Positions 16,690 through 64,000 of a stretch of DNA of 64,000 nt are shown in pieces. The DNA is taken from contig NC_058377.1 of the NCBI RefSeq assembly GCF_018350175.1, positions 61,566,001 through 61,630,000 on the forward strand, written 5' to 3'. Position numbers and translations under genes: made by a program. Numbering within the stretch: position 1 is the first letter of the stretch; each line of letters begins with the position of its first letter. The stretch comes from Felis catus. Its lineage: Eukaryota. The notes beneath the pieces were generated by a model. It was not told where the DNA came from. It did no database searches and worked only from the letters and a program-made list of their open reading frames with translations.

Positions 16690-17800
16690 CATGTACCCTC
16701 CATCACAGTATCATACAGATCACTTTCACTACTCTACAATTCCCTGTGCTCCACCCATTCAACCCTCCCTCTCTCTTCCTACACTCCTGGCTACACTCAT
16801 CTTTATGCTATTTCTAATTTCTATAGTTTTGCCTTTTCCAGAATGTCATATATTTGGAATCATGTACAGATGTAACCTTCTCTGGATGGCTTCTTTCACT
16901 CAAAACTGTGCATTAAAGGCTCTTCCATGTCTTTTCATAGCTTGATAGCTCTCTTCTTTTTAAATTTTTTTTAATGTTTATTTGCTTTTGAGACAGAGAG
17001 AGACAGATGTTAGCAGGGGCCGGGCAGAGAGAGAGAGGGAGACATGGAATTTGAAGCAGGCTCCAGGCTCCAAGCTGTAGCGCTGAGCCCGGCGTGGGGC
17101 TCGAACCCACAAATGGCAAGATCATGACCTAGGCCGAAGTCATGTGCTCAGCCCACTGAAACTCTCGGGCACCCCAGCTCTCTCTCTTTTTTAATCAAAT
17201 ACTCACATTACATTTTAAAGAGGTGCCACGGTCTGTTTTTCCCTTCATCTTAGTTGCCTCCAATTTTTGGCAATTAAAAATAAACCTGCTATAAACATTT
17301 ATGTGCGTGTCTTTGTGTAGACATAAGTTTTTAACCCATTTGGTACCATGTCTAGGAGTGCAAGGCCAACCACATGGTAAGACTATGTTTCCTTCAGTGA
17401 GAAATGCAAAACTCTCTTTCAGCGTGGCTGTACTATTTTGTATTTTCACCAGCAATGAACGAGAGTCTCTATTACTCTATATCCTCACCAGCATTTGGTT
17501 TTGTCAGTATTTCAGGTTTTACTCATTCTGATAGGTGTGTATGCTATCCCATTGTTTTACTTTGCAATTCCTTAATGACAAATGATATTGAGCATCTTAA
17601 AACATGCTTATTGCTCTTTGTTATGTCTTTTTGGGGTGAAATATGTTTTCAGATTTTTGTCTGCTTTTTAAGCAACTTGTTTATTTCCTTATTGTTGAGA
17701 TTTAAAAGTTCTTTGTATATTTTGGATACAAGTCCTTTGTCAAACATGTATTTTGCAAATACTTTCTGCCAGTCTGTAGCCATAGGCTTTTCATTTTCTT
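16690..17800 (-). mobile_element. Old L1M fragments with nested CAN-SINE (~16957-17175)
   Basis: Antisense L1 ORF2/3'UTR similarity (ttgccttttccagaatgtcatat, tctttgtatattttggatacaagtcctttgtc); paralog ~38860-39975. Confidence 0.8.
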
Positions 17801-18603
17801 AACTTACTATGAAACTGTGTTCTTTTTTCCCAGGGTACACGGTGTCCTTTAGTTTTTGGAATAGTTTTGAATAATTTTCTAATATGTTCCTGGTCTACTA
17901 CTGTCCACCTATAGTTTTATCTTCCCTGACTTTCTAGAACTCCAGTTTAGTGATATGTTGGTGTTCTTGGATTGAACCTATATAGTTTTTAATCACAGCC
18001 CCCATAGTTAACATGTGTCCTTTTGTTCTGGTTTCTTATATCTATCTTCTGGGAGTTTCATTGTTTTTTTCTTTTATTTCTCATATTGTTGTTTAATTTA
18101 CAAATTACCTTTTTGTAAACATGTTTGTTTTTTGTTTGTTTTAGTACAATATGCTTAAAATACACCTCCTCAAAAAAAACCTTTTGGTGACTAAAAAGCC
18201 ACATGAAGACCTTGTTTTCTTTGAGTACCTACACGTTCTAAAACAAAGAGTTTGGCTGCATTTAATTTCAGTGATAGATGCATATTTATGAATTCTTCTG
18301 GAGAAGCATCCATAGAGAAGAAATTCAACCAGGAAATAAAAAATAAAAGAGGAAAGGTAACAATATATTTTCACTATTTGATCTTTATGTTTATTCCTTT
18401 TATTAGGCGGTAGCATCCCAAAACCGACCGAATAATAGTTGTCATAGGGTATAACGATATGAAAACCATAAAATGCAGACAAAATAAACAAAACAAATAT
18501 ACAAAACTGAAGAATTGCAGACAGTGTGGATTTTTAAATGTTATATTTAATTTTGAGATATTGCTACTAAGGCGGAAGGTGAAGGAGTTAATCACAGTGA
18601 ATT

Positions 18604-19542
18604 TTATGAAGAAAACGACTTTACCACATGAATGCGGATCTGCTTGGTCTTGGCACCATAGACAAGTGGATTGAGAAATGGGGGGACCAGCAAGTAGAGG
18701 CTAGAAAAGAGGATGTGGATATAAGGGGGAACATGAGCACCAAACCTATGTGTGAAGAAGGAGAAGAAGGCAAGGAGGTAGAACTGGAGGAAGACACACA
18801 TATGAGCGATGCACGTATTGAATGCTTTCAACCGAGCCTCCTTCTTGGGCAAACGAAAAACAGTGGAAAAGATCTGTGCATAAGACAAAGTGATGAATGT
18901 GAGGTCGAACCCTGCAACTGTAAATGCCACAAACAAGCCATAGATTTTGTTGACCCGTACATTTTCTGCAGCCATTTTCACAATGGCCATATGCTCACAG
19001 TAGCAGTGGGAGATGATGGTTGTATGGTAAAACTGAAACCGGAACTTTATCAGTATTAGGCACGGGGCTACTAGGCAAGCGGCCCTGAGTGTTACCACTG
19101 CCCCTATCTGGGTGACTAGGCGGTGCGTGATGATGGCAGAATGTCTTAGTGGATAACAGATGGCCACATAACGGTCCAGAGCCATGGCCAACAGGATGCC
19201 TGACTCTATGCCCTGAAATGTGTGGATGAGCCACATTTGAAGCAAACAGGAATCAAAATAAATGTCTGCCACATGAAACCAGAAAATTCCAAGCATCTTG
19301 GGCATAATGGTGGTAGCAAGCGCAATATCTGTGACTCCCAGCATGCCTACGAAAATGTACATGGGCTCATGGAGGCTGCGCTCTGACCTGATGATGAGAA
19401 GAAGCAAGGAGTTTCCAATCATAGCAATGAGATACATGACACAGAATGGAATCCCAATCCAGCACTGCACAGTCTCTAGGCCTGGGATCCCTATCAGCGT
19501 CAACACAGAAGGCCTGAAGACTGTGATGTTGGAAATGGACAT
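18604..19542 (-). CDS. OR52A1: Class I olfactory receptor, OR52A1-like copy A, 312 aa (probable chimera)
   Basis: MSISNITVF.PSVLTLIGIPGLE.VQCWIGIPFC, MALDRYVAICYPLRH, FQFYHTTIISH, KAFNTCIAH, HRFG, PPFLNPLVYGAKT; matches human OR52A1 as I recall it. Confidence 0.95.
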   Translation of the reverse strand: MSISNITVFRPSVLTLIGIPGLETVQCWIGIPFCVMYLIAMIGNSLLLLIIRSERSLHEPMYIFVGMLGVTDIALATTIMPKMLGIFWFHVADIYFDSCLLQMWLIHTFQGIESGILLAMALDRYVAICYPLRHSAIITHRLVTQIGAVVTLRAACLVAPCLILIKFRFQFYHTTIISHCYCEHMAIVKMAAENVRVNKIYGLFVAFTVAGFDLTFITLSYAQIFSTVFRLPKKEARLKAFNTCIAHMCVFLQFYLLAFFSFFTHRFGAHVPPYIHILFSSLYLLVPPFLNPLVYGAKTKQIRIHVVKSFSS

Positions 19543-20894
19543 AATGTCCTCCGGCCTCCAGATGAAAATGAAAGAAGGTTCTCAGTCAGTGGCACTCTTC
19601 TCTTCTACTCCTGTTTTAATTCAAAGTCATCATAGTGAGTCTCTGTGATTTTGTCAGAATTCAAAGAGCATCTCATCCATCTCGTTTATATTATCAAAGG
19701 AAAAAGATCCATACTTACACATCACTGTTTTCAAGAAGGACATCCATAAGTAGTGTACCACAGTAAGAAGTTATGTACAAGGCAGGCCAACTGCATTAGA
19801 ACCACCCAGATGACGTGGATAAAGGAGTAAATTGCTGTTCTTTTGGTTATGTCCTTCTGGACCTGCGGATAAAATAATTATACTTGTTTATTTGCTTGGA
19901 TATTGCACTTTAATCAGATTTTAATAAATCTCTCCCTATCCCACATTTCAGCTGACCTTAGTGTTCTATTTTTTCCCCCAAACTCTCGGAGTCAGAAACC
20001 ATCAGTTTGGACAATCACATAATCAGACTCTAACCAGTATTTTGGTTTAAAAGGCTTCCTTAGAAAGAGAAGTGAGATAGACATAGCTTCACCCAGGAAC
20101 ATAATATATTGAGATAAGTGTATCTGTGTATTATGTATTTATGTAGGACTGGCTCTCCTTTTTAAAAAATGTGAAATAGAGCTTGAGAAAAGATGATCAA
20201 ATCCATGTAATTTTAATCTAAATCAAGTTCCATGCTGATTTTTACATTATAAGTAAAACTTTATTTTATTTTCCCTATGTAAGTAATGGCAGAATTCTTT
20301 GACATGAATTGTACACTTCAAATAATGGAAATTCTGAAATACATGCTTCGGAAGGACTAGAAGGGAGGAATCTCTAGAAGGCAAAAAATCTAGAGAAACA
20401 AGGCATAGGCAAGAGGACTCATTCTTGCTGACTAGGGGATATAGGTGAACAGGTAACTTAGCCAGAATCAAGGTTAGTTTCTGGGGTTGAAAGTGCTCAG
20501 GGTTACTATCACCAAAAGATCGGCAAGTTTAGGCTCATTGATTCTTAATAATATGCAGACCATTTGATTGCTTCACTCATATTGTGAGCTCAAGCCTAAA
20601 AAATGAATAAAAATAAAGGGGTGAAAAGACAGTCTCCTTAAGAGGAGTCCAAGATAGAAGTAGAAATGGAAGACAGAAGGCAGACCTTGGGGTTCCAGAA
20701 ATGATGCAGGAGAGAGGGCTGTAGAGCAACTAAGGAAACTTTAGTTGCTTCAATTCCCTGATGACTGAATTTCCTCAAAACTTGGGTTCTTAGTGCCTGT
20801 ATGAAAGTTCTTTTCTTATAAAGATCATTGCTTTTAAGAATTGCGTATCTAAAATCATGAAATTCTCAAGTTGTACAATAGAAAAATACCTGCT

Positions 20895-21250
20895 AGGTGC
20901 ACGGGTGGCTCAGTCAGTTAAGTATCCCATTCTGTGTTGTTGTTTTTAATGTTTATTTATTTTGAGAGAGAGAATGCTAGCAGGGGAGCGGGGGGGGGGG
21001 AGGGGGAAGATCCACTCACAGCAGAGAGCTCCATGCAGGGCTCCAGTTCATGAGCTGTGAGGTCATGACCTTGGCCACGGTCTGAGGCTTAAGGGACTGC
21101 AACTGCGCCACTCAGGTGCCCCACACTTCCAACTTTTCATCTTGGCTCAGGTCATGATCTCATGGTTAATGAGATTGAGCTCCATGTCAGGCTCTGCATT
21201 CTCTCTCCTTCTCTCTCTGCTCCTTCCCATGCTCTTCTCTAAACAAACAA
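20895..21250. mobile_element. Nested CAN-SINEs (minus-strand SINE ~20935-21122 inside a plus-strand SINE)
   Basis: Plus-strand head ggtgcacgggtggctcagtcagttaag is interrupted and resumes at ...ttggctcaggtcatgatctc; same structure at 50438-50790. Confidence 0.8.
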
Positions 21251-21380
21251 ACAACCATTTATGAAAAAAATAGTTGCTATCGTATAAAACAGCTTTTAGT
21301 TATTTCATTCATTCCTATCTCTCCAACAGTGTTACATTATGTCAGCAAGCTCATAATCATCTAAACATATAATGAATGTT

Positions 21381-21835
21381 AGGGCCCCTGGATGGCTCAG
21401 TAGGTAAAGCAACTGACTTTGGCTCAGGTCATGATTTTGTGGTTCATGAGTTCAAACCCTGTGTTGGGCTCTGTGCTGACACCAGGGAGCCTGGAGCCTA
21501 TTTCAAACTCTCTCTTTGTTTCTCTCTCACTCTCTCTCTCTCTCTCTGCCCCTCATCTGCTCATTATCTCTCTCTCTCTCTCTCATACATAAAATGAACA
21601 TTAAAAAAATTTAGGGGCGCCTGTGTTGCTCAGTGGGTTGAGCGTCTGACTTCAGCTCAGCTCATGATCTCACAGCTTCATGATTTCAAACCCCGTGTCG
21701 GGTTCTGCGCTGACAGCTTGGAGCCTGGAGCCTGCTTCCGATTCTGTCTCCATCTCTCTCTGCCCCTAACCCACTCGTATTCTGTCTCTGTCTCTCTCAA
21801 AACTAAACATTAAAAACATCATTATTTAAAAATTT
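21381..21835 (+). mobile_element. Two head-to-tail CAN-SINEs
   Basis: Second SINE starts at ~21613 in the A tail of the first; outer degenerate TSD aaacatata..gaa.gt.a; paralog 50926-51370. Confidence 0.88.
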
Positions 21836-22079
21836 AAACATATACCGAAAGTCACCAAATATACCAGTAATTCAGCAATAGCTGTGGTTTATGCTGCTAA
21901 AACTCTAGTGACGAATCATAGTCAGAAGGACCATTTATGAAGACAGGCTGTATCACCTGACATGTATTTAGGATAGACTAGTCAGTCAGCAAAGTCCATT
22001 TCCAAAGCATAGAAATCCTTTAGAAATGATCACCTTGTCTGACTTATTCAAGCTGACATAGGAGCTTGAGCTGACATAG

Positions 22080-22900
22080 GAGCATTACCTGACAATTGCA
22101 GATGGTGGGAAGGCAGGTGGGAGAGGATGCATGACTACAGAGCGGGGGCGGGGGGGGGGTGGCGGGGGGTGGAGTGGTTATCATTGGAAAAGCTGGAAAT
22201 GAAACATTATGGGGTGAATTTGGCGAGAGTGAGGCTTCCTTGCCCTTTCCTGTTGGGAGCCAGTTCTGCTCTTACCAGACACTTGAAGACCAAGGTCAGT
22301 CTTCATAATACAATGACTCAGCACTCACTTGTCATCCACTCTTTCTCCTCCTGAGATTCCCATCTCATTCACTTCCATCTCGTGCTGGCCATGCCTCTTC
22401 TTACTATCTGCACCCTCTATAACAGCCCTCTTCAATGTCATGAACTCTGAGCCATTTGCTGCTGGGCTATCTGCCAATACGTGGGAAGTATCTCTGTGAG
22501 AACCTTTCTTGCTTTTCTTCTGTTGCTGCAGAACAGACATGCTCCCTGTTCTGTCAGTTTATCTGAGATCATGTTGCTGGGTTCATCTCCACCAAAACTC
22601 CCAGCAAGGTTTGTATTATGCTGAGGCAGGAGCATAAATTTATTGAACTCAAACTGTAGAGGAAAGCCCCTGACCACCACTTGTAATGTTCCCCTTGAAT
22701 GTGAGAAGGACCAGGTCTGAACACGGACTGAGAGATTTCCTTGCCAGTAGCCCAAGCCACAGGAGGCCCAGCAGCTCATAATTAAGCCCCCTTGGGTCCA
22801 ATCACATCTCATGTCTCTGAAATCATTTCTAAAACTTGCAGAATCTCCTTGCTCTCCTCTTTTCGCTTTCCCATGGGGTAAATGCAGAGAAATTAAAGTA
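22080..22900 (-). promoter_or_regulatory. Candidate promoter / 5' UTR exons of OR52A1-like copy A
   Basis: TAATTA (22779-22784) next to CCCCTTGGGT, TCCCATGGGG (22869-22878), minus-strand donors at 22089 and 22329. Block conserved upstream of all three OR52A1 copies. Confidence 0.45.
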
Positions 22901-23994
22901 CCCATGTTGTATTTTTTAAGAGTTCAGTTCCTTTCCTGCTGTCCTCCTTTGGAAAAAGATCTAAAGCACCTTTAAATGTAGGCATGTTTCTATGCCATGA
23001 ATTCTATAAGTATCCTTTTGACCCATCTTTCACTTAGGCACTTCTGGAAAGAAAAGTCTGTATCCACCAGGGCTTTCTATCACATATTTCACTCTAATTC
23101 TCTTGCAGTCTCCTTCCTCAGATTTTTATTTTATTGAAGCTATTTTTGTAAATTCAGTGATTTTCTCAGGATGACCAGTTGTGATGGACATTTCTAAATC
23201 CTTCCATACTGAGCCGTGAATCAGTTGTTGCACATTGGACTGAACTTTTCTCCATCCCTCCTTTTCATACATTTCTTCCACTTTTCTTGCACTCTTCCTT
23301 CGGATTGCAGGTGTTTTATGCCTCATAGATGTGAGGGAATCACGCTATTCTGAACTTGATGCAAATAAAAGTAGATATGATATATGCTTTCAAATTTTTA
23401 GAAATGTGGGGAGAAGAATTAGCATATCTTTAATCATGAGAACAAATGATGAGTTCTAAAAAAACCAGACAAACTTATATACATTGTACCTTTCTCCTTC
23501 ATATGATTCACCTGGTTTCCAGACCTTTCTTGTACGTTGCTCCCCTTAAGAGGTATTTGACATAATGTTGAGATGCTGGCAAGTTTAGGAAGAATACCTT
23601 CAGTATGATGGAGGAAGACATTCATAATGGATTGCAGGGAGAATAAGAGGTAGAGGTCAAAGGGCAAGGGGGCCTTGCATGCTCTTTCCACAATTCCGTC
23701 TGTAAAGGAGACTGATACCATGGCATTGAGTCATGTTGAGTGCATGTTGAGTGCATGAGTGAATCATGTTGAGTGGTTCAGAGGTCAGACTGTCACATGT
23801 TGGCTAACAATAGCTCATTGTTAAGTCACCGAGAAAACATAGACTATTTTATACTTTTGTTTCCTTTTTCTTCCTCTCTTCTACTGACTTTACCTCAAAA
23901 GATTTTCTTTCCTTTACCCTAAAATTGTGAGGGCTGTGGGGGTAGGCTAATGAATCATCTTTAAAGGATCATCATTCGAAAATGATCTGGTTTG

Positions 23995-34001: not shown

Positions 34002-34960
34002 TTAACAATGCGTGCTGATGGGGGAGCAAAGCAAAATTACTCGGTCTTGAATCTGTTTGGTCTTCACCCCATAAATGATGGGGTTTATCATAGGGGGCAC
34101 TACCACATAGAGGTTGGCTACCAGGATGTGGATGTGCTGAGAGACGGTTTTATCCCCAAAGCGATGGGCAAAAAAGGAAAAGAATGCTGGGGTATAGAAC
34201 ATAAGTATGACACAAATGTGGGAACCACATTTGTTGAGGGCCTTGAATCGGGCAGACAAGGATGATATCTGAAAAACTGTGCAAAGGATCATCGCGTAGG
34301 ACATAATGATGAACACAATGTCTAGTCCTGTAGACAGTAGGACCACAGTCAGGCCATAAATGATGTTGACACTGATATTGTCACATGCCAATCTGGCAAT
34401 GCCCATGTGCTCACAGTAGGAATGGGGAATGATGTTTCTCCCACAATACGTAAGTCGGTGTACCAGGAAGATGAATGGAAAGCAGATGATAAAGCTCCTG
34501 ACCACAGCTGTGATGCCAATTTTCCCAGTGGCTGAGGAGGTTAAGATTGTGGTATATCTCAGTGGGTGACAGACGGCCACATAGCAGTCAAAGGCCATGG
34601 CCAGCAGAATAGCAGATTCTACCGCAAAGAGGAAATGGATGAAGAACATGTGAGATACACAACTACCAAAGGATATATCCATGGAATGGAACCAGAAGAA
34701 GCCAGCATCCTGGAGGCTGTGGTTGTGGAGAGCAGGACATCTGATAAGGCCAGCATGGAAAGGAAGACATACATAGCCTCATGGAGACGGCACTCAGTTA
34801 CAATCAGGAAGATCAAGAAGATGTTGCCTATGACAGCCAAAATGTACATAGAACAGATAGGGATGGAGATCCAGGTATGAGAATCTTCCAGTCCTGGGAT
34901 TCCAGTCAGGACATACCACATATCCTGGGGATGGGTGTGATTGTAAGAGAAAGGGGCCAT
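34002..34960 (-). pseudogene. OR52Z1: OR52Z1-like pseudogene (frameshift)
   Basis: Net 1-bp deletion at ~34699 (gaagaagccagc vs gaagattgccagc in copy 1) splits the ORF into 34619-34960 and 34002-34682. Also DRY>DCY, LHEPMY>LHEAMY, PKML>SRML, NTC>NKC. Confidence 0.92.
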
Positions 34961-39975: not shown

Positions 39976-40349
39976 AACTTACTATGAAACTGTGTTCTTT
40001 TTTCCCAGGGTACACGGTGGATTCTCCCAATTTGGATTTGTGTCCTTTAGTTTTTGGAATAGTTTTGAATAATTTTCTAATATGTTCGTGGTCTACTACA
40101 GTCCACCTATAATTTTATCTTCCCTGACTTTCTAGAACTCCAGTTTAATGATATGTTGGTGTTCTTGGATTGGCCCTATATAGTTTTTCATCCTAGCCAC
40201 CATACTTAACACTTGTCCTTCTGTTCTACTTTCTTATATCTAACTTCTGAGAATTTCATTGTTTTTTCTTTTATTTCTCATATGGCTGTTTAATTTACAA
40301 ATTATCTTTTTGTTCTCTAATTATTTCTTTTAGTAGTATTCTGTTCTAT

Positions 40350-40561
40350 TTTTTGAAAAAAATGAGGTTTATTTATTTTTGAGAGAGAGAGAAAGACAGA
40401 GCACAAGCAGGGAAGGAGCACAGAGAGGGAGACGCAGAATTCGAGCAGGCTCCAGGCTCTGAGCTGTAGCACAGAGCCTTACAGGTGGCTCAAACCCATG
40501 AATTGAGAGATGACCTGAGACTTAGTTGGAGGCTTAACTGACTAGGCCACCCAGGTGCCCC
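40350..40561 (-). mobile_element. CAN-SINE
   Basis: SINE body ending ggccacccaggtgcccc; absent from unit 1 along with its flanks. Confidence 0.88.
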
Positions 40562-41103
40562 TTAGATATTTTTATCTCATTACATCCTTAAAGATTTGGC
40601 TTCTATGTACACGTTTGCTTTTTGTTTGTTTCTTAGCACAATATGCTTAAAATACACCTTCTCAAAAAAAACCTGTTTAGGTGACAAAAAGTTCAACCCA
40701 CATGAACACCTTGTTTTCTTTGAGTACCTGCACATTCTAAAACAAAGAGGTTGGCTGCATTTGATTTCAGTGATAGATGCATATTTATGAATCCTTCTGG
40801 AGAAGAATCCATAGAGAAGAAACTCAACCAGGAAATAAAAAATAAAAGAGGAAAGGAAACAATATATTTTCACTATTTTAATCTTCATGCTTATTCCTCT
40901 TATTAGGTGGTAGCATCCCAAAACCGACCGAATAATAGTTGTCATGGGGTATAATGATGTGAAAACCATAAAATGCAGACAAATTACACAAAACAAATAT
41001 ACAAATCTGAAGCATTGCAGATAATGTGGCTTTTTAAATGTTATATTTAATTTTGAGAGATTGTTACTAATGCGGAGGTTGAAGGAGTTAATCACAGTGA
41101 ATT

Positions 41104-42042
41104 TTATGAATAGAGCATCTTTACCAGGTGAATGCGGATCTGCTTGGTCTTGGCACCATAGACAAGTGGATTGAGAAATGGGGGGACCAGCAAGTAGAGG
41201 CTAGAAAAGAGGATATGGATATAAGGGGGAACATGAGCACCAAACCTATGTGTGAAGAAGGAGAAGAAGGCAAGGAGGTAGAACGGGAGGAAGACGCATA
41301 TGTGAGCGATGCACGTATTGAATGCTTTCAACCGAGCCTCCTTCTGGGGCAAACGAAAAACTGTGGAAAAGATCTGTGCATAAGACAAAGTGATGAATGT
41401 GAGGTCAAACACTGCAACGGTGAATGCCACAAACAAGCCATAAATTTTGTTGACCCGCACATCTGATGCAGCCAGTTTTACAATGGCCATATGCTCACAG
41501 TAAGAGTGGGAGATGATGGTTGTATGGTAAAACTGAAACCGGAACTTTATCAGTATTAGGCATGGGGCTACTAGGCAAGCGGCCCTGAGTGTTACCACTG
41601 CCCCTATCTGGGTGACAAGGCGGTGTGTGACGATGACAGCATGTCTTAGTGGATAACAGATGGCCACATAACGGTCCACAGCCATGGCCAACAGAAGGCC
41701 TGACTCTATGCACTGAAATGTGTGGATGAGCCACATTTGAAGCAAACAGGAATCAAAATAAATGTCTGCCACATGAAACCAGAAAATTCCAAGCATCTTG
41801 GGCATAATGGTGGTAGCAAGCGCAATATCTGTGACTCCCAGCATGCCTACGAAAATGTACATGGGCTCATGGAGGCTGCGCTCTGACCTGATGATGATCA
41901 GAAGCAAGGAGTTTCCAATCATAGCAATGAGATACATGACACAGAATGGAATCCCAATCCAGCACTGCACAGTCTCTAGGCCTGGGATCCCTATCAGCGT
42001 CAACACAGAAGGCATGAAGACTGTGATGTTGGAAGTGGACAT
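41104..42042 (-). CDS. OR52A1: Class I olfactory receptor, OR52A1-like copy B, 312 aa
   Basis: Intact ORF; MAVDRYVAICYPLRH, HSYCEHM, KAFNTCIAH, HRFG, PPFLNPLVY. Confidence 0.95.
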   Translation of the reverse strand: MSTSNITVFMPSVLTLIGIPGLETVQCWIGIPFCVMYLIAMIGNSLLLIIIRSERSLHEPMYIFVGMLGVTDIALATTIMPKMLGIFWFHVADIYFDSCLLQMWLIHTFQCIESGLLLAMAVDRYVAICYPLRHAVIVTHRLVTQIGAVVTLRAACLVAPCLILIKFRFQFYHTTIISHSYCEHMAIVKLAASDVRVNKIYGLFVAFTVAVFDLTFITLSYAQIFSTVFRLPQKEARLKAFNTCIAHICVFLPFYLLAFFSFFTHRFGAHVPPYIHILFSSLYLLVPPFLNPLVYGAKTKQIRIHLVKMLYS

Positions 42043-42559
42043 AATGTCTTTGGGCTTCCAGAAGCAAATGAAAGAAGCTTCTCAGTCAGTGGCACCCTTC
42101 TCCTCTACTCTTGTTTGTATAAAGTCATCATAGTGGGTCTCTGATTTTGTCAGAACTCTAAGATCATATCATCCTTCTTATTTATATTATGGAATAAAAA
42201 TGATCCGCCGATACACATTGTGTTTTCAGAACAGACATCCACGAGTAGTGTAGCACAATGAGAAGTTACATAGAAGGCAAGTCAATTGCATCACAACCAG
42301 CCAGATCATGTGGGTAACAGAGTAACTGCTGATCTCTCTGTTATGTGCCTCTGCACCTGGGGATACAATAATTATACCTGTTAAACTTGCTTGGAAATGA
42401 CATTTCAAGCAGAGTTTGATGAATCTCCATATTCCACATTCCAACTACCTGATAATATTTGTTATTTTCCATTGTGTCTAGGTCTGGAACTGACACTTTG
42501 GATCAACAAATCTGACTCTGACCAGTACATTAGTAGATAAATCTCCATAAGTTTTATAT

Positions 42560-42751
42560 TTTAAGGTTTTTTTTTTAATAGAGAGAGACAGAGATCACAG
42601 GAGGGGCAAAGAGAAGGGAGAGAGAGAGTAACCCAAACAGACTACATACCATCAGCACACAGCCTGACATGAGGTTTGAACTCACCAACCCCAAGATCTT
42701 GACCTGACCTGAAATCAAGAATGGCACGCTCAACTGAGACACCCAGGAGCC
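42560..42751 (-). mobile_element. Diverged CAN-SINE
   Basis: Poly-T, GA-rich region, ends caactgagacacccaggagcc. Confidence 0.78.
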
Positions 42752-42924
42752 TCTTTTTCTCTTTATTTCTTGATTTTTTTAAGTGAAAAAACTCCCTATG
42801 AAAGAGAACAGAGAAACTGGTGACACCCAAGAGCACAATATATTCATCTATCTATATCATTTGTATCTACGTAAGACTGGATGTCTCTCTTTTCCTTGTT
42901 TTTTTTTTTCCATTAACAATTTCA

Positions 42925-43175
42925 CTTTTTAAATTTAATCCATGTTAGTTAACATGTAGTGTAAGAAGGGTTTTAGGAGTAGAATTTAGTGACTTGTCAT
43001 TAAATATAATACCCAGTGCTCATCCCAACAAGTGCCCTCCTTAATGCCCATCACCCATTTAACCCATCCCCCACCCACCACCCTTACAGTAAACCTCAGA
43101 GTGTTTTTTACACCCAGGAGGCTCTTATGGTTTGTGCTCTTCCGTTTTTATCTTATTTTTTCTTCCCTTCCCCAG
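42925..43175 (-). mobile_element. Carnivore L1 3' end fragment
   Basis: acccagtgctcatcccaacaagtgccctccttaatgcccatcaccca resembles the L1 3' UTR at 58070-58140. Confidence 0.8.
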
Positions 43176-44319
43176 AAGTCCTTTCAAAAGAAAGTAGGAA
43201 GCGCTTTGAATAGATCATCCAAGCCCATGCACTTTTGGTGAGTCTGGGTGAAAATTTCATGCCATTTTTACATGCCTCAAAGAACTCTATTTTATTTTGC
43301 CCACATACTAACAATTGAATTCCTGAAAATTAGTGGTGTGCTTAAAATCAGTGACATTTGGAATACCCATTTCTGAATACCTAGATGAAAGGAATCTCTA
43401 GAAAACATGGAAACTCAGAGGCGACAATGTATAGAGACAAGGGGACTCAATCTTGCTGACAACAGAGTGTGGGAAAATGGGTCCATGGGTAATTCATGGA
43501 CTAGAGGCTAGGTTCTTGGGCTTAAACTGCTCACAGCTGCCAGTAACATGAGATTTGGCCAATGTAAGCTCATTAATTCTTAATGAAATATATATCACTT
43601 GAACATTTGAATTTTTCATGAGCTCATGCATGAGAAAAGAGTGAAAAATAAAGGGGTGAAAGGACACGTTTCCCAACAGGAGTCCAATATGGAAGTAGGA
43701 ATGGAAGACACGGAGCAGACTTGGGATACCAGAAATGATGGAGGAAATGGCTCAACTTAAGAACATTTAATCACCTTGATTCATGATGACTGACTTTTCT
43801 GAAAACTGGGCTCTTAGTCTAGTTCAGATACATTTGTATCTGAAAAGATCTTGCTTTTTAAAAATCACATATCTTAAATTAGAAAGCTTCAGGCTACATT
43901 AGAAAGTTTCTATTTGGTGGAAACAGGATTCAGTTGTTTCATTCTTTCCTAGTTGGTCCAACATTGTTGCTTTCTGTCAGCAACCCCATGATCATTTAAT
44001 CATATATTTATTGTCACTAAAAATGCCAGTAATGCAGGAAGAGCTGTGGTGTATGTGGCTAAACCTCAAGTGAAGGAACCCACTCAACAGGTCCATTCTA
44101 GAAGCAAGTCTGTATCAGCTGATGCATATTTAGAATATACCAGTTAGTCAACTAAAACATGATTTCCAAAACTTTGCTCCCCAATGCTTAATCCTAGAGA
44201 TTCCTCGATCATGGATTCTTTTATTCACTTCTTCTTTCTAGAGTTAATCAGAATTAGAAGAGAAATCCTTCAGTACCATTCACATTGTCTGGCATATTTA
44301 ACAGTAAGGAGCTGATGTG

Positions 44320-45100
44320 GCAGCATTACCTGACAGGTACAGATGGTGGGAAGGCAAGTGGGAGAGGACCTAAGTGAGTACAGAGCAGGGGGGATGGAGT
44401 GGTTATCACTGGAAAAGCTGGTAGTGAAACATTATTGGGTGAAATTGAGGAAAGGGACTTCATGCTTTGTTGTTGGGGGCCAGTTGTGTTTTTACAAGAC
44501 TCCTGAAAACCGTGGTCTGTCTTCGTAACACCATCACTCATCACTCATCACTCACCTGTCATTCACTCTTTTTCCTCCTGAGACTCTCATCTCATTCACT
44601 TGTGCTTATGCTGGCAGCGGCTCTTTCTTCTCTCTGCACCCTCTAGAACAGCCCGCTGTAAATATCATGAACTCTTATCCATTTGCTGCTCAGCCATCTG
44701 CCAAACTGTGTACATCTCTGGAATAGACTTTCCTCTCTTCTTCTGTCCCTGCAAAACAGACTTGCACTCTCTTTTGTAAATTGTGTCTGAGCTCATGTTG
44801 GTGGGATCACACTCCAACAAAACTCACAGGAAGGTCTATATTTGCTAGACACAGCATAACTTTATTAAGCTTGAATTGGCAAGTATAACGTTCCCCAGTG
44901 TACAAGGAGAAGGAGGAGGTCTGAATATGAGATTTCCCAGCCGCTAACCCAAGCCTCCAGGGACCCAGCAGCTCATAATGAAGCCCTCTTGCGTCCATCC
45001 ACATCTAATGTCCCTGAAGCCATTTCTGCAACTTGCAGAATCCCCTTGGTCTCTTCATTTCTTTTTCCCCACCAGGGAGATGTAGAGAAATTAATATATG
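44320..45100 (-). promoter_or_regulatory. Candidate promoter / 5' UTR exons of OR52A1-like copy B
   Basis: Diverged homolog of 22080-22900; keeps CAG|GTAATG (44330), CAG|GTGAGT (44556) and TAATGA (44976-44981). Confidence 0.4.
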
Positions 45101-45800
45101 CAATCTGTATTTTTTGACATTCCTTACAAAATAAAAAGTTTTCTGTGAAAATTAAGTAATTAAATTTACTTTTGTCAGTTTCTTTCTGCTGTCCTCATTT
45201 GGAAAAAGATTGAAAGGACACTTAAGTGTACTTAAATGTATGTTCCTATGCCGATGAGTTACGTATAAATAAGTATTCTGTGACCCTTCTTTCACTGAGA
45301 CACTTCTGGACACAAAATCTGTATCCTCAATGGCTCTCTATCACACATTTAATACTCATTCTCTTGTAGTATCATTCTTTAGATCTTTATTTTATTGAAG
45401 CTTTGTAAATTGAGTATATTCTCACAATGACCAGTTATGATGGACATTTCCACTTTCCACTGCTTAGTAGACTTTCATTACAGAAAACTACACATCTGAC
45501 TATTATCATTATTATCATTGTCAATTATACATGATGAATAATTATACATAATTTCATCTAAATGTTTTTGGAAATATGCTTTGTCGCTTTTTATATAAAT
45601 ACTTACAAAATACTCTTTAATTGTTTCTTTGCAGACGATGACCCAAACTGTTTATTTGCATAAATGTGTGAACTCTGACTAGAACATTAAAATTGCCTCC
45701 GCAGTTTTTTTTTTCTTTTATTCCAAAGAAATTGTTATTAAAGCACCACAACCCCTATTGGTAATCCAAGCAAACCCTATCTCATAAATACTGACATTTA

Positions 45801-46230
45801 TTTTTTTTCATATGTAATTTACTGTCAAATTAGTTTCCATGCAACACCCAATGCTCATCCCTTCAGGTGCCCTCCTCAATGCCTATCACCCACCCTCCCC
45901 TCCCTCCCACCTCCCATCAACCCTCAGTTCATTCTCAGTTTTTAAGAGTCTCTGATACTTTGGCTCCCTCCCTCTGCAACTTTTTTTCCTTCCCCTCCCC
46001 CATGGTCTTCTGGTAAGTTTCTCCAGATCCACATAAGACTGAAAACATATGGTATCTGTCTTCCTCTGTATGACTTATTTTACTTAGCATCACACTCTCC
46101 AGTTCCATCCATGTTGCTACAAAAGGCCATATTTCATTCTTTCTCACTGCCAACTAGAATTCCACTGTGTACATAAACCACAATTTCTTTATCCATTCTT
46201 TAGTTGATGAACATTTAGGCTCTTTCCATA
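45801..46230 (-). mobile_element. 5'-truncated carnivore/felid L1 (430 bp) with TSD
   Basis: Encodes ORF2 C-terminus (KNEIWPFVATWMELESVMLS); exact TSD ataaatactgacattta at 45784-45800 and 46231-46247. Confidence 0.95.
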
Positions 46231-46894
46231 ATAAATACTGACATTTAAAACAGCCTCAAAAGATGCTTGAGGATAGCCTCTAGATTTACAAAGTGATCAA
46301 ATTCAGTATTCATTGATAAAGCCCAGTCTATAAAACAAGCCAGAGTATCTACATCCATGTGACATGCAGTCTAATAAATTCTTATGTATACATTGATTTA
46401 AGTGTCACAAATCAAAGTATGGACGTCTGCACACATGTGAATATTTTCCATACTCTTTTTAAAAATGACCCATGAGCTCAGGTTTTCAGGAACGGCCCAC
46501 AAGCCTTAAGTTCTCAAGTCATTAATTTGGACAGAACACTTTATGTGTTCATTAGCACAATAACCTTGAGTGATTTAAAAGCATGATGTTTTAAGTCCAC
46601 TGAGAAGATACCCTGCCATATGTCAAATAGATACACACATTCACACACATGTGCATTTTTGGAGTGAAAACTGGCCAGTGACATATGATAGCTTTCAGAA
46701 TAAAGTTCACCCATTTTGTATAGTGTTCATAACCATTCTTGACATTTGTAGTTTTCTTGTCTCTACAAGTTGTGCATTACATTGAGAAAAACTGTGCCAT
46801 TACTTGATTCTCTATTTAAGCTCCAAGACCATCTACCTGGCATGGTATGTCTTTACCTACCAGCAATTCATCTGTCATTCCTTAAGACTTGCTA

Positions 46895-47205
46895 CAGGGA
46901 AAAACTAATACCACATGATTTCAAGCATATGTGGAATTTAAGAAACAAAACAAACAAGCAAAGGGAAAAAATAAGAGACAGAAAGAAATCAAAAAAGGAC
47001 ATTTAACTGGAGAGAACACATTGATGGTTACCAGCAGGGAGGTGGGTGGAGGGATGGGTTATATTGGTGATGGGGATTATTAAGAAGTCCACTTGTCATG
47101 ATGAGCACAAGGTGTTGTATGGAAGTATGGAATCACTATATTGCACATCTGAAACTAATATAACACTGTGTGTTACCTAACTGGAATTAACAAAAAAATT
47201 AAAAG
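46895..47205 (+). mobile_element. Carnivore L1 3' end fragment
   Basis: atgtggaatttaagaaacaaaacaaac ... tattgcacatctgaaactaatataacactg. Confidence 0.8.
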
Positions 47206-47694
47206 AGGAATCAGACTTTGTAATTAAAACAAAAGAAAAGAAGAAAATACTACAGATGCTGCTTTCCTTTGGATTTCAATGCTTCACTCTCTTGGCTAAC
47301 CCTACATTCCAGAGGTACCTCTATTACTTCTATCATTTTCGTCTCCCTCTCTCTCTCTTTCTCCCAGTGATATTAAGCTATGATGGCTATAAACCCAAAA
47401 AAACATAAACACTGTCAAATTTGTCATTTTGCTTCTATTCTTGAGTATAGCATTTATAATATTGTAGGGTTTTGATAACACTTGAGAAATTAATAAAGAC
47501 ATAAATGGTGAGTGTGCATAAAAAGCACTGAATTGTAAAATAGAATGATGGATTGTTCATAATGTTTATGTCTTAATGCCCTGAATGACACCGGAAACGT
47601 TGAAATTTGAAGACTATGTGTCATTAGATTGTATACAGTTTTTTGTTTCATTGGGTTTTTTGTTTGAATGAGAACAAAATGCTTCCTCTCATTA

Positions 47695-47906
47695 ATTTTA
47701 TTGCTTAAGTTTATTTATTTATTTTAATAGAGGGAAAGAAAGTGCACAAGTTGGCAGGGGCAGAGAGAGAGAAGGTGAGAGAGAACCTCAAGCTGGCTTC
47801 GTGCTCTCAGCAAAGAACCTAGTGCAGGGCTTGAACTCATGAACCATGAGATCATGACCAGAGCCAAAATTGGACACTTAATCAACAGAGCCATCCAGGA
47901 ACCCCT
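47695..47906 (-). mobile_element. CAN-SINE
   Basis: gggcttgaactcatgaaccatgagatcatgacc ... gagccatccagg. Confidence 0.82.
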
Positions 47907-48366
47907 CCTCTCATTTACTTTAAAGATGATGAGGATGATCCAGAAACAAATAGATTCAACAACGTGATTTCATCAAGTACCTGGACAATCCAAGACAATG
48001 AGTCTTGGGTGCTTGGAAATTCATTGAGAAATAGATATTTATGGATTGTTGTGGAGAAGATTACTTAAAGGAGAAAATTCAATCAGGAACTGAAAAATAA
48101 GAAAAAAGAAAGGGAATTGGTACATACTCACTATTGCTGTTTCTACCATTCCCATTCTCATTACCTAGTAGGATCTAAATCGCACTGACTGATAGGTGTC
48201 ATGGGCTGTGATGTGAAAACTGCCTAAAATGCAGGCAAATTTCACAAAACAATTAAGGAGACAAGTCGAGCATCATGAATCATATGCATTTTTCCATTTT
48301 ATTCTGTTTTGAGAGATTGTTACTTTGCATAAAGGAGAAGGTTGAAGACGTTAATCACAGTGCATT

Positions 48367-49302
48367 TTATGAATACAACATCTTTACCAGGTGAATGCGG
48401 ATCTGCTTGGTCTTGGCACCATAGACAAGTGGATTGAGAAATGGGGGAACCAGCAAGTAGAGGCTAGAAAAGAGGATGTGGATATAAGGGGGAACATGAG
48501 CACCAAACCTATGTGTGAAGAAGGAGAAGAAGGCAAGGAGGTAGAGCTGGAGAAAGACACAGATGTGAGCGATGCACGTATTGAATGCTTTCAACCGAGC
48601 CTCCTTCTGGGGCAAATGAAAAACGGTGATAAATACCTGTATGTAGGACAAAGTGATGAATATGAGGTCAAACCCTGCAACGGTGAATGCCACAAACAAA
48701 CCATAGATTTTGTTGACCCGTACATTTTCTGCAGCCATTTTCACAATGGCCATATGCTCACAGTAGCAGTGGGAGATGATGGTTGTATGGTAAAACTGAA
48801 ACCGGAACTTTATCAGTACTAAAGATGCTACAAGAAGGGCAGCCCTGAGTGTTACCACAGCTGCTATTTGTGTGACTAGGCGGTGGGTGAAGATGGCAGA
48901 ATGTCTTAGTGGATAACAGATGGCCACATAACGGTCCAGAGCCATGGCCAACAGAAGGCCTGACTCTATGCACTGAAATGTGTGGATGAGCCCCATTTGA
49001 AGCAAACAGGAATCAAAATAAATGTCTGGCACATGAAACCAGAAGATTCCAAGCATCTTGGGCACAATGCTCGTGCCAAGTACAATATCTGTGACTCCCA
49101 GCATGCCTACGAAAATGTACATGGGCTCATGGAGGCTGCGTTCTGACCTGATGATGAGAAGAAGCAAGGAGTTTCCAATCATAGCAATGAGATACATGAC
49201 ACAGAATGGAATCCCAATCCAGCACTGCACAGTCTCTAGGCCTGGGATCCCTATCAGCGTCAACACAGAAGGCCTGAAGACTGTGATGTTGGAAACGGTC
49301 AT
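48367..49302 (-). CDS. OR52A1: Class I olfactory receptor, OR52A1-like copy C, 311 aa (one-codon deletion in TM4)
   Basis: Intact ORF with the main OR motifs; LVAPCLIL in copies A/B is LVASLVL here. Confidence 0.93.
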   Translation of the reverse strand: MTVSNITVFRPSVLTLIGIPGLETVQCWIGIPFCVMYLIAMIGNSLLLLIIRSERSLHEPMYIFVGMLGVTDIVLGTSIVPKMLGIFWFHVPDIYFDSCLLQMGLIHTFQCIESGLLLAMALDRYVAICYPLRHSAIFTHRLVTQIAAVVTLRAALLVASLVLIKFRFQFYHTTIISHCYCEHMAIVKMAAENVRVNKIYGLFVAFTVAGFDLIFITLSYIQVFITVFHLPQKEARLKAFNTCIAHICVFLQLYLLAFFSFFTHRFGAHVPPYIHILFSSLYLLVPPFLNPLVYGAKTKQIRIHLVKMLYS

Positions 49303-50437
49303 AATGTCCTCCGGCCTCCAGATGAAAATGAAAGAAGGTTCTCAGTCAGTGGCACTCTTCTACTCCTGTTTTAATTCAAAGTCATCATAGTGAGTCTCTG
49401 TGATTTTGGCAGAACTCTAAGATCATCTCATCCATCTCGTTTATATTATCAAAGGGAAAAGACAGATTCATATACACACACCACATTTCAGATGACCTTA
49501 GTGTTCTATTTCTTTCCCCCAAACCCTCTGAGTCAGAAACTGTCAGTTTGGACAATCACATAATCAGACTCTAACCAGTATTTTGGTTTAAAAGGCTTCC
49601 TATGAAAGAGAAGTGAGATAGAAATAGCTTCACCCAGGAACATAATATATTTAGATACCTTTATCTGTATATTATGTGTTTATGTAGGACTGGATGTCCT
49701 TTTAAAAAACTGTGAAATAGAGCTTGAGAAAAGATGATCAAATCCATGTAATTTTAATCTAAATCAAAGTTCCATGCTGATTTACATTATAAGTAAAACT
49801 TTATTTTATTTTGCCTATGTAAGTAATAGCAGAATTCTTTGAAATGAGTTGGACACTTAAAATAATGGAAATTCTGAAATACACGCTTCGGAATGACTAG
49901 AAGGGAAGAATCTCTAGAAGGCAAAGAAATCTAGAGAAACAAGGCATAGGCAAGAGGACTCATTCTTGCTGACTAGGGGATATAGGTGAACGGGTAACTT
50001 AGCCAGAAAAGAAGTTAGTTTCTGGGGTTGAAAGCGCTCAGGGTTACCATCACCAAAAGATCGGCAAGTTTAGGCTCATTGATTCCTAATAATATGCAGA
50101 CCATTTGATTGCTTCACTCATATTGTGAGCTCAAGCCTAAAGAATGAATAAGAATAAAGGGGTGAAAAGACAGTCTCCTTAAGAGGAGTCCAAGATAGAA
50201 GTAGAAATGGAAGACAGAAGGCAGACCTTGGGGTTCCAGAAATGATGCAGGAGAGAGAGCGCTGTAGAGCAACTAAGGAAACTTTAGTTGCTTCAATTCC
50301 CTGATGACTGAATTTCCTCAAAACTTGGGTTCTTAGTGCCTGTATGAAAGTTCTTTCCTGATAAAGATCATTACTTTTAAGAATTGCATATCTAAAATCA
50401 TGAAATTCTCAAGTTGTACAATAGAAAAATACCTGCT

Positions 50438-51370
50438 AGGTGCATGGGTGGCTCAGTCAGTTAAGTATCCCATTCTGTGTTGTTGTTTTTAATGTTTATT
50501 TATTTTGAGAGAGAGAATGCTAGCAGGGTAGCGGCGGGGGGGGAAGATCCACTCACAGCAGAGAGCTCCATGCAGGGCTCCAGTTCATGAGCTGTGAGGT
50601 CATGACCTTGGCCACGGTCTGAGGCTTAAGGGACTGCAACTGCGCCACTCAGGTGCCCCACACTTCCAACTTTTCATCTTGGCTCAGGTCATGATCACAT
50701 GGTTAATGAGATTGAGCTCCATGTCAGGCTCTGCATTCTCTCTCCTTCTCTCTCTGCTCCTTCCCATGCTCTTCTCTAAACAAACAAACAACCAACCATT
50801 TATGAAAAAAATATTTGCTATCTTGTGAAAAACAACATTTAGTTATTTCATTCATTCCTAGTGTCTCTAACACTGTTGCATTATGTCAGCAAGCTCATGA
50901 TCATCTAAACATATACTGAATGTTAGGGCCCCCAAGGTGGCTCAGCAGGTAAAGCAACTGACATTGGGCGCAGGTCATGATCTTGTGGTTCATGAGTTCA
51001 AGCCCTGTGTTGGGCTCTGTGCTGAAACCTTGGAGCCTGGAGACTATTTTGAACCCCCCCTTTCTCTCTCTCTCTCTCTCTGCTCCACCCCTGCTCATGC
51101 TCTATATCTCTCTCTCTCTATTATACATAAAGTAAATATTAAAAAAAATTAGGGGCACCTGTGTGGCTCAGTCGGTTGAGCGTCCGACTTCAGCTCAGGT
51201 CATGATCTCACATCTCCTGAGTTCAAACCCGTGTCGGGCTCTGTGCTGACAGCTTGGAGCCTGGAGCCTTCTTCCGATTCTCTCTCCCCCTCTCTCTGCC
51301 CCTAATCTACTCACATTCTGTCTCTGTGTCTCTCAAAGCTAAATATTAAAAAAAAATATTTTTAAAAATT
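50438..51370. mobile_element. Nested SINE pair (50438-50790) and tandem SINE pair (50926-51370)
   Basis: Paralogs of 20895-21250 and 21381-21835. Confidence 0.85.
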
Positions 51371-51609
51371 TGAACATATACCGAATGTCATCAAATATAC
51401 CAGTAATTCAGCAACAGCTGTGGTTTGTGTTGCTAAACCTCTAGTGAAGAATCATATTCAGGGGGACCACTTATGAAGACAGGCTGTATCACCTGACATG
51501 TATTTATGATAGACTAGTCAGTCAGCAAAGTCCTTGATTTCCAAAGCATAGAAATCCTTTAGAAATGATCACCTTGTCTGACCTATTCAAGAGTTAGGAG
51601 CTGACATAG

Positions 51610-52420
51610 GAGCATTACCTGACAGGTGCAGACGGTGGGAAGGCAGGTGGGAGAGGATCTGCATGATTACAGAGCAGGAGGGGGGGGGGGTGGAGTGGTT
51701 ATCATTGGAAAAGCTGGAAATGAAACATTATGGGGTGAATTTGGCCAGAGTGAGACTTCCTTGCCCTTTCCTGTTGGGAGCCAGTTCTGCTCTTACCAGA
51801 CTCTTGAAGACCAAGGTCAGTCTTCATAATACAATGACTCAGCACTCACTTGTCATCCACTCTTTCTCCTCCTGAGATTCTCATCTCATTCACTTGCATC
51901 TCATGCTGGCCATGCCTCTTCTTTCTATCTGCACCCTCTATAACAGCCCTCTTCAATGTCATGAACTCTGAGCCATTTGCTGCTGGGCTATCTGCCAATA
52001 GGCCAGAAGTATCTCTGTGAGAACCTTTCTTGCTTTTCTTCTGTTGCTGCAGAACAGACATGCTCCCTGTTCTGTCAGTTTATCTGAGATCGTGTTGGTG
52101 GGTTCATCTCCACCAAAACTCCCAGCAAGGTTTGTATCATGCTGAGGCAGGAGCATAAATTTATTGAACTCAAACTGTAGAGGAAAGCCCCTGACCACCA
52201 CTTGTAATGTTCCCCAGTGAATGTGAGAAGGACCCTGTCTGAAGACAGACAGAGATTTCCTAGCCAGTAGCCCAAGCCACAGGAGGCCCAGCAGCTCATA
52301 ATTAAGCCCCCTTGGGTCCAATCACATCTCATGTCTCTGAAATCATTTCTAAAACTTGCAGAATCTCCTTGCTCTCCTCTTTTCGCTTTCCCACGGGGTA
52401 AATGCAGAGAAATTAAAGTA
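51610..52420 (-). promoter_or_regulatory. Candidate promoter / 5' UTR exons of OR52A1-like copy C
   Basis: Near-identical to 22080-22900; TAATTA 52299-52304, TCCCACGGGG 52389-52398. Confidence 0.45.
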
Positions 52421-53466
52421 CCCATGTTATATTTTTTAAGAGTTCAGTTCCTTTCCTGCTGTCCTCCTTTGGAAAAAGATCTAAAGCACCTTTAAATGTA
52501 GGCATGTTTCTATGCCATGAATTCTATAAGTATCCTTTTGACCCATCTTTCACTTAGGCACTTCTGGAAAGAAAAGTCTGTATCCACCAGGGCTTTCTAT
52601 CACATATTTCCCTCTAATTCTCTTGCAGTCTCCTTCCTCAGATTTTTATTTTATTGAAGCTATTTTTGTAAATTCAGTGATTTTCTCAGAATGACCAGTT
52701 ATGATGGACATTTCTAAATCCTTCCATACTGAGCCTTGAATCAGTTGTTGCACATTGGACTGAACTTTTCTCCATCCCTCCTTTCCATATATTTCTTCCA
52801 CTTTTCTTGCACTCTTCCTTCGGATTGCAGGTGTTTTATGCCTCATAGATGTGAGGGAATCACGCTATTCTGAACTTGATGCAAATAAAAGAATTATGAT
52901 ATATGCTTTCAAATTTCTAGAAATGTGGGGAGAAGAATTAGCATATCTTTAATCATGAGAACAAATGATGAGTTCTAAAAAAACAAACTTATATACATTG
53001 TAACTTTCTCCTTGACATGATTTACCTGATTTCCAGACCGTTTTTGTACGTTGCTAACCTTAAGAGGTACTTGACGTAATGTTGAGATGCTGGCAAGTTT
53101 AGGAAGAATACCTTCAGTATGATGAAGGAAGACATTCATAATGGATTGCAGGGAGAATAAGAGGTAGAGGTCAAAGAGCAAGGGGGCCTTGCATGCTCTT
53201 TCCACAATTCCGTCTGTAAAGGAGACTGATACCATGGCATTGAGTCATGTTGAATGCAATTGATTCAGAGGTCAGACTGTCACTTCTTGGCTAACAATAG
53301 CTCATTGTTAAGTCACCGAAAAACTTAGACTATTTTATACTTTTGTTTCCTTTTTCTTCCTCTCTTCTACTGACTTTACTTCGATAGATTTTCTTTCTTT
53401 TTTCCTAAAATTGTGAGGGTTGTGGGTCGTAGGCTAATGGATCATTTTAAAGGTTCATCATTTGCA

Positions 53467-54460
53467 AACGGAATTTGCAAATTATATATCTAATACGGGA
53501 TTAATGCCCAGAATATACAAAAAACTCAAACAACTCAAAACCAAAAAGATAAACAACCGAATTTAAAAATAGGCAAAGGAATTAAATAATTAATCCTCTA
53601 AAGAAAATATACAAATAAAATAAATAAATAAACGCTATGGAGCCTGCTTTGGATTCTGTGTCTCCTTCTCTCTCTGCCTAACCCCCGCTTGTGCTCCGTC
53701 TCTCAAAAATAAATAAGGAAATGTAAAACACAATTAAAAAATTGAAACACTAACAAGTTTTGACAAAATAGGGAAAAATTGGAACCATCATACATTGCCA
53801 GAGGAAATGAAAAATGGTGCACATTCTGTGGAAAACAGTTTGGCAGTTTCTTAAAAACTCAGGCACAGAATTACATGTAATGCAGTAATTCCACTCCTGA
53901 GTATGTACCCCCCAAATAAGAACAGGTATTCAAAGACATACCTGTACATGGATGTTCATTGCAGCATTATTTACAGTAGGCAAATGGTGGAAGCAACCGA
54001 ACTGCACATCCATAGATGAATGTAAAAAACAATGTATACACACACACACACACATATACATATACATATATATATAAAGAGAACATTATGCATCAGTATA
54101 AAGAAATGAAGGATGCTACATTCATAAAGGATGAAACATGCTACAACATGGATGACCTTTGCAAATCTTATGTTCAGTGAAATAAGCCAGACACAAAACA
54201 TAAATATTATATGATTCCACCTCTACAAGTAAACAAAATCATAGAAATATAAAGTGGGTTATAGGTTAACAGGGGAGTGGGGAATTATTGCTCAGAGACA
54301 TAGGGTTTCTGTTTTGGGTGATGAAAGCTTTTGCAACTGGTGGCAAATGGAACACAACATTGCAAATATGATTAATTGCTCTGAATCATACACTTAAAAA
54401 TCATTGTTATCACAAACTTTATGGAACAGATATTTTGCCACAAAAAATTTTGAAAAAATA
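53467..54460 (+). mobile_element. Old L1M fragment with partially deleted SINE (53638-53740)
   Basis: Paralog of 3929-5160; ~200 bp including the SINE head is replaced by an aaat-rich filler. Confidence 0.8.
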
Positions 54461-62080: not shown

Positions 62081-62130
62081 TGTGATGTCTGTATGTTTTA
62101 TGCTTGTAGTGATGTCTCTGGGACTTTGTC

Positions 62131-63944: not shown

Positions 63945-64000
63945 TCAGCAGAATTTCAACTGTTTCTACAAACACTCAATGACTCACTATTTTCGCTTCC

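Follow-up and report, generated by a model that had tools for sequence, protein, structure and literature searches.

A chimeric OR52A1-like odorant receptor gene in the domestic cat and the unequal crossover that may have produced it

Fusions between neighbouring paralogues have been described for human odorant receptors and for globins. The human gene OR8U1 derives from OR8U8 and OR8U9, and the OR51A2/OR51A4 fusion combines the protein of one gene with the upstream region of the other (PMC2570968), with the fusion point near the 5′ end of the open reading frames (ORFs; PMC2978733). Fixed anti-Lepore globin fusions, in which the 5′ part comes from the downstream paralogue and the 3′ part from the upstream one, with both parents still flanking the fusion, occur in carnivores (PMC4041002). 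Here we describe copy A, an OR52A1-like gene in a 64,000-nucleotide stretch of Felis catus DNA (assembly GCF_018350175.1, contig NC_058377.1, positions 61,566,001 to 61,630,000 of the forward strand). This whole stretch is called the window, and all positions are window coordinates unless prefixed. Copy A is a real and probably pan-felid paralogue fusion of this well-known kind; a preliminary description had read it as a Lepore-type fusion of two further copies in the window, B and C.

Copy A and OR51A2/OR51A4 both involve tandem class I receptor paralogues, nonallelic homologous recombination near the 5′ end of the ORF, and an exchanged upstream region (PMC2570968, PMC2978733). However, the human fusion is a segregating deletion with an allele frequency of ~32% (PMC2978733), whereas copy A appears old, is shared across felids at the protein level, and is more simply read as a duplication junction. 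OR8U1 is likewise an in-frame receptor chimera with its crossover in an identical stretch of ~115–120 bp, and its 7.6 kb is close to the 7.3-kb spacing of cat B and C, but its crossover lies in the middle of the ORF (bp 472–590), its protein is truly hybrid, and it is a polymorphic deletion (PMC2570968). The HBB/HBD anti-Lepore fusions of carnivores and other laurasiatherians share with copy A the geometry, both flanking parents, and the blurring by conversion, and they have been fixed over long times (PMC4041002), as is proposed for A. They even belong to the same chromosomal neighbourhood, an HBB-like gene lying ~82 kb from A. They differ in being globins with adjacent parents, whereas in the cat ~25 kb of a tandem array already in place separate the parents, and the proposed duplication includes an OR52Z1 gene. 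The cat locus opens no new mechanism. Among the best matches of the literature search, no paper on this locus was found, and repertoire tables in supplements may hold these genes; the main-text passages of a felid receptor-repertoire survey (bioRxiv 10.64898/2026.08.03.742608) contain nothing on it.

Mixed ancestry of copy A

Copy A is a genuine chimera of paralogue sequences. In a self-BLAST, 18119–19958 matched 40609–42450, at copy B, with 90.4% identity, and 19941–23982 matched 49481–53468, at copy C, with 92.6% identity. The search of the cat's own genome yielded five OR52A1-like copies (A, B, C, D, and E) at 92–100%, and the proteins of D and E carry the Felis catus label in the protein collection. 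In 264 kb of contiguous sequence, copy D proved to be of the C type; its 3′ flank differs by 3.1% from that of C, and it has its own copy of the B–C spacer. Flank distances were calculated from gap-free alignment columns, and columns in which C and D agree and B differs were treated as diagnostic. In the 3′ flank (291 columns), the distances were 0.058 for A–B, 0.316 for A–C, and 0.285 for B–C, and A had the B state at 93 of 101 diagnostic sites. In the proximal 5′ flank (321 columns), they were 0.215 for A–B and 0.053 for A–D, and A had the C/D state at 22 of 23 diagnostic sites there and at 196 of 206 in the distal part of the flank. The agreement on each side is far beyond chance. Over the 4-kb 5′ flank, A–C was 0.0475 (3703 columns), A–D 0.0548, and C–D 0.0505.

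B-type and C-type flanks differ by 21–32%, their coding regions are 92–98% alike, and A differs by 5–8% from its matching flank on either side. In trees of the separate partitions, A joined B for the downstream flank and C/D for the upstream flank, a discordance that had been predicted beforehand. The sequence between 19543 and the nearest following receptor remnant, at ~27 kb, is entirely of the C/D type, and ~215 bp and ~5.2 kb of the 5′ flank that are common to A and D have been lost from the flank of C. This C/D-type flank presumably contains the promoter of A. Segments of it at 22006–23194 are conserved at 70–76% with the flanks of B and E; a 155-amino-acid ORF at 22438–22905 sits in this shared, non-coding flank.

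The flank matches reported in the preliminary description, and the much greater divergence between the flanks of B and C, were thus recovered. So was the absence of ~7.3 kb from the unit of A; B and C are 7,263 bp apart, and no comparable spacer lies beside A. The donor of the 5′ part had been named as C, and this is supported for the type but not for the gene, as D matches about as well and A with C was never the best rooted tree.

Crossover interval and encoded protein

Copy A agrees with C and D at the upstream sites as far as −6 and at positions +8 and +29 of the coding sequence (CDS), and it agrees with B at +162 and, in a run of sites, from +221 onward. Over +30 to +143 (114 bp), B and C do not differ. 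The crossover therefore most likely fell within +30 to +161, with wider bounds from the start codon to +221 if later conversion shifted single sites. Further downstream, A has the B state at 22 of 28 sites in +162 to +487 and at 13 of 20 in +644 to +939, and the tract between them is C/D-like. This tract was considered as a second crossover and rejected, because most of its states in A also occur in hyaena, otter, and bear proteins, so that B is the derived copy there; a short gene conversion near codon 190 is probable.

The protein of A is 93.3% identical to B, 91.0% to C, and 89.7% to D. It differs from B at 21 residues, only three of which (3, 10, and 49) lie in the part possibly of C/D origin, which spans at most ~53 codons. 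The switch is at the very start of the CDS, so the fusion was in effect a swap of upstream DNA, and comparison of the copies indicates a B-lineage receptor whose upstream region is foreign, its protein little changed by the fusion, and not a half-and-half protein. The preliminary description is supported in its proposal that unequal crossover inside the coding region gave an in-frame, intact gene whose upstream region is of the C type and whose 3′ end is of the B type. Its "chimeric receptor" applies to the C/D-type start and overstates the exchange in the protein; its "C's promoter" is accurate as to C/D-type upstream DNA and too strong as to promoter status; and the coding region it expected to be mixed does have mosaic sites but is mostly B-like.

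The ORF of A is intact and homologous to OR52 receptors, with OR52A1 proteins as its best matches and a match to 8HTI at E = 4e-121. Mapped through the 8HTI alignment, it keeps R266, H184, and G202 (R6.59, H45.52, and G5.39). The pocket of OR52cs is formed by transmembrane helices (TM) 3–6 (PMC10703812), and of the 18 positions examined, the five cat copies differ only at 111 and 161. The pair G111 and C161 is present in A and in its five felid relatives (see below) and in none of cat B, C, D, and E.

Origin of the fusion

The array is ordered as Bp, spacer, D, C-type flank, X1; then A, C-type flank, X2; then B, spacer, C, C-type flank, X3. Each of X1, X2, and X3 contains one OR52Z1-like gene, and Bp is a B-type 5′ flank that heads the spacer left of D and breaks off seven bases into the coding region. 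In the direction of transcription, the OR52A1-like genes follow one another as C, B, A, D. The D-to-A (24,729 bp) and A-to-B (22,500 bp) intervals are mutually collinear at 91–95%; that is, the DNA between the parents B and D occurs twice, and the two copies meet at A. The order B, A, D, with both parent types intact on either side, fits the anti-Lepore geometry. On balance, we slightly favour the reading that A marks the junction of a ~23–25-kb tandem duplication generated by one unequal crossover between D and B, probably before living cats diversified.

The B-type and C-type OR52A1 genes are old paralogues with divergent flanks and similar coding regions. Recombination between two short interspersed nuclear elements (SINEs) would first have doubled a block consisting of B, the spacer, C, and OR52Z1. 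Such an older tandem duplication is likely, judging from its junction: X1 and X2 meet the B-type 3′ flank through the same hybrid SINE, which the SINE of X3 matches only to its middle, and the first two units match the third as far as mid-SINE (17075/39250/69270) and diverge beyond. The B gene of the right unit would then have aligned out of register with the left unit's C-type gene, D, and a crossover in CDS +30 to +161 would have added a middle unit with A at its junction. Mosaic sites are present in the coding regions, which later gene conversion may have blurred. The outcome would be a putative carboxylic-acid-type receptor of the B lineage driven by C-type upstream DNA.

The age of the array was considered by protein comparison. 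In a quick tree of 52 rows (a 642-amino-acid fused row, P0151, was excluded, and 15 of the 133 members of the largest cluster were listed), A grouped with proteins of the leopard, fishing cat, Geoffroy's cat, bobcat, and Iberian lynx (SH-aLRT 92), separately from an 11-row B clade (97); three of these five proteins have the C-type R10. The survey of other felids proposed in the preliminary description thus found A-like genes at the protein level. OR52Z1-like proteins numbered three each in the lion, tiger, jaguar, clouded leopard, and Canada lynx and four in Geoffroy's cat, counts that may include isoforms. G2, the OR52Z1-like copy of the cat's middle unit, grouped with lynx and pantherine proteins (UFBoot 99), and the felid copies were apart from those of the meerkat (87). 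These counts and groupings indicate that the three-unit array, and probably A, predates the split of the big and small cats.

A Lepore-type deletion would end in an identical structure, and therefore only ancestry can decide. In likelihood tests of the pairings of the A, C, and D 5′ flanks, rooted on the flanks of B, Bp, and E, (A,D) was best in all five whole-flank runs, with (A,C) at p = 0.024–0.037 in the approximately unbiased (AU) test. It was also best in the 908 junction-proximal columns, where both rival pairings had AU p = 0.048, and a first tree run on a forced alignment ranked the pairings in the same way. Several results weigh against the duplication. The Kishino–Hasegawa and Shimodaira–Hasegawa tests left (A,C) unrejected (p = 0.07–0.15), (C,D) withstood every whole-flank test and came out ahead in the distal 1311 columns, and strict site counts in the rooted tests were 7, 6, and 3. 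In raw 5′-flank distance, A is slightly closer to C than to D. The supposedly duplicated halves are not younger, as X1–X2 was the closest pair in only one of four three-way blocks; all unit pairs differ by ~4–7%, and the three units form nearly a star (~5%). Outgroup votes, tried as a rooting of the units and rejected, also gave a star (21 for the D+A side, 17 for A+C, and 22 for D+C). Gene conversion between units, illustrated by the sister relationship of cat G1 and G3, weakens every tree, and a history of duplication and later deletion could also yield an A+D tree. Finally, the A-like genes of other felids are known from proteins and not from flanks. The search for insertions common to only two of the three units gave none, large indels being mostly losses in the C unit, and the OR52Z1 protein tree was discarded as a marker of unit order because it is confounded by within-species conversion.

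The 7.3-kb Lepore deletion of the preliminary description ranks behind the D × B duplication, which gives the same structure with one event fewer, two instead of three, but it keeps an appreciable, if smaller, probability. It would require three complete B–spacer–C units, in the middle one of which a crossover between B and the C-type gene removed 7.3 kb. The A–C distance is the smallest among the three 5′ flanks, a strict clock would pair the units of A and C (87, 81, and 63 private changes), and human OR8U1 and OR51A2/OR51A4 are deletion fusions of a similar size class. Nevertheless, (A,C) was never the best rooted tree, and the short A–C distance can be explained by a short branch of C. A deletion also leads one to expect a solitary fusion replacing its parents, and the intact B-type and C-type genes flanking A can be reconciled with it only by assuming a third complete unit, since lost. 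The third spacer is absent from the genome region examined and from contigs of four runs covering the spacer at 43250–45450 (85% likeness), where 40 of the 40 variant rows shown had the letters of the D-side spacer; 103 further rows were outside this comparison, and contigs drop rare variants.

These limits also leave some room for an assembly collapse between an unseen B-type and an unseen C-type gene, as do the identity of B and C over the 114 bp at the switch and the indirect nature of the support for the junction of A. We nonetheless regard a collapse as extremely unlikely, because it predicts a third spacer, none of which appeared among the spacer variants compared, and because five other felid species have annotated A-type proteins, with the C-type R10 in three. 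The flanks of A also differ by ~5–7% from every other copy, and 20 of 24 listed runs, from 13 studies, hold 0.79–0.84 of the sampled words from 17900–20900, a share to which paralogues contribute and in which one run may be the source of the assembly. It is very improbable that gene conversion overwrote one side of a B-type or C-type gene at constant copy number. Short conversion tracts are frequent in these coding regions, but A is collinear for more than 20 kb on each side with different neighbours (on the left as B, on the right as D), and a tract of that length would be a crossover in effect.

Returning to the duplication, it is conceivable, though we think it unlikely, that the promoter-swapped A arose at the duplication junction in the felid ancestor and has stayed intact throughout the family because, under C-type upstream DNA, a B-lineage pocket (G111 and C161) is expressed at a different level or in a different zone. 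If so, A would be a natural promoter-swap experiment more than 10 million years old beside the β-globin cluster. The fusion would matter more if expression of A and B differs in the cat nose. Copy A is a clear example of odorant receptor arrays generating new promoter–coding combinations, and it also carries a caution, in that a window cutting off one parent cannot separate a Lepore from an anti-Lepore origin.

Array features and neighbouring genes

Table 1. Features of the OR52A1-like array and the basis of their assignment
Feature	Position	Strand	Basis or remark
Copy A, intact 312-aa OR52A1-like ORF; B-lineage coding region with C/D-type start	18604..19542	-	ORF list, site table
Most likely crossover interval, CDS +30 to +161	19382..19513	-	Diagnostic sites
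Mid-CDS tract, +488 to +643	18900..19055	-	A follows C/D at 9/9 sites
B-type 3′ flank of A	17176..18603	-
C/D-type 5′ flank of A, collinear with D flank to 26764 and beyond; holds presumed promoter	19543..23982	-
Copy B, intact; 3′ donor type	41104..42042	-	ORF list, protein comparison
SINE-containing 295-bp stretch in 3′ flank of B, absent from 3′ flank of A	40314..40608	.
B–C spacer (5′ flank of B and 3′ flank of C)	42043..48366	.	Second copy left of D
Copy C, intact, 311 aa, same type as D	48367..49302	-	ORF list, genome search, distances
5′ flank of C, without ~215 bp and ~5.2 kb retained by A and D	49303..53468	-
Copy D, C-type, OR52A1-like	G000:C21:61559875-61560813 (L014:3875-4813), 6 kb left of window		Genome search
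Copy E, OR52A1-like	L010:2123-3061, 48 kb left of window		Genome search
Hybrid SINE at older tandem-duplication junction	16960..17175	.	Same junction at 39133-39351
OR52Z1-like copy G1, intact, within D-to-A repeat	8675..9634	-	ORF list
OR52Z1-like copy G2, frameshifted in this genome, within A-to-B repeat	34002..34960	-

The spacer left of D and the B–C spacer have diverged by 6.2% over 6069 columns. At the left end of the array (L013:7554-7570, G000:C21 ~61553554, 12.4 kb left of the window), half a SINE is joined to Bp, and the sequence to the left of this junction repeats a ~13-kb OR51-containing block from 55–60 kb further left. A B-type gene formerly at the Bp junction was probably lost there. 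G2, whose lineage is common to lynx and pantherines, has a one-base frameshift near codon 88, and G3 (L015:377-1297) begins at a later ATG, 20 bp having been deleted close to its start, leaving G1 as the sole full-length OR52Z1-like copy. Only the third unit contains an L1 insertion of ~6 kb (57914–63945), with an ORF2 fragment at 60623–62080. Copy C has lost one codon (Pro160 of A) in TM4, beside pocket position 4.60, a deletion that D lacks. Copy E is a mosaic, C/D-like in the 5′ half of the CDS, B-like at codons 190–194, and A/B-like in the 3′ third, and its flanks differ by ~15–35% from every other copy.

In other felids, the accession-number order in the clouded leopard (OR52Z1, OR52A1, G2-type, B, OR52Z1) resembles the cat order, although it does not amount to a map and was given no weight as proof. 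Another OR52A1 mosaic (P0001 and P0160–P0163) recurs in the lion, tiger, leopard, jaguar, and clouded leopard; its first two thirds are B/A-like, residues 215–254 C/D-like, and tail A-like, and it may be an additional hybrid or the pantherine gene that occupies the place of A. In Geoffroy's cat, as many as four OR52Z1-like proteins form one cluster, and two OR52A1 proteins share an extended tail (P0131, P0138, P0165, P0224, P0244, and P0246), a pattern consistent with continued turnover or homogenisation of the array.

An adult β-globin-like gene lies ~38 kb to the right of the window (L018:7478-8101, window ~101,500–102,100) and has a near-duplicate (97.5%) at a distance of 4.3 kb. Human OR52A1 contains a GATA1-bound enhancer associated with hereditary persistence of fetal haemoglobin (HPFH; PMC8500713), and WGATAR matches are listed in the multiplied cat OR52A1-like copies.

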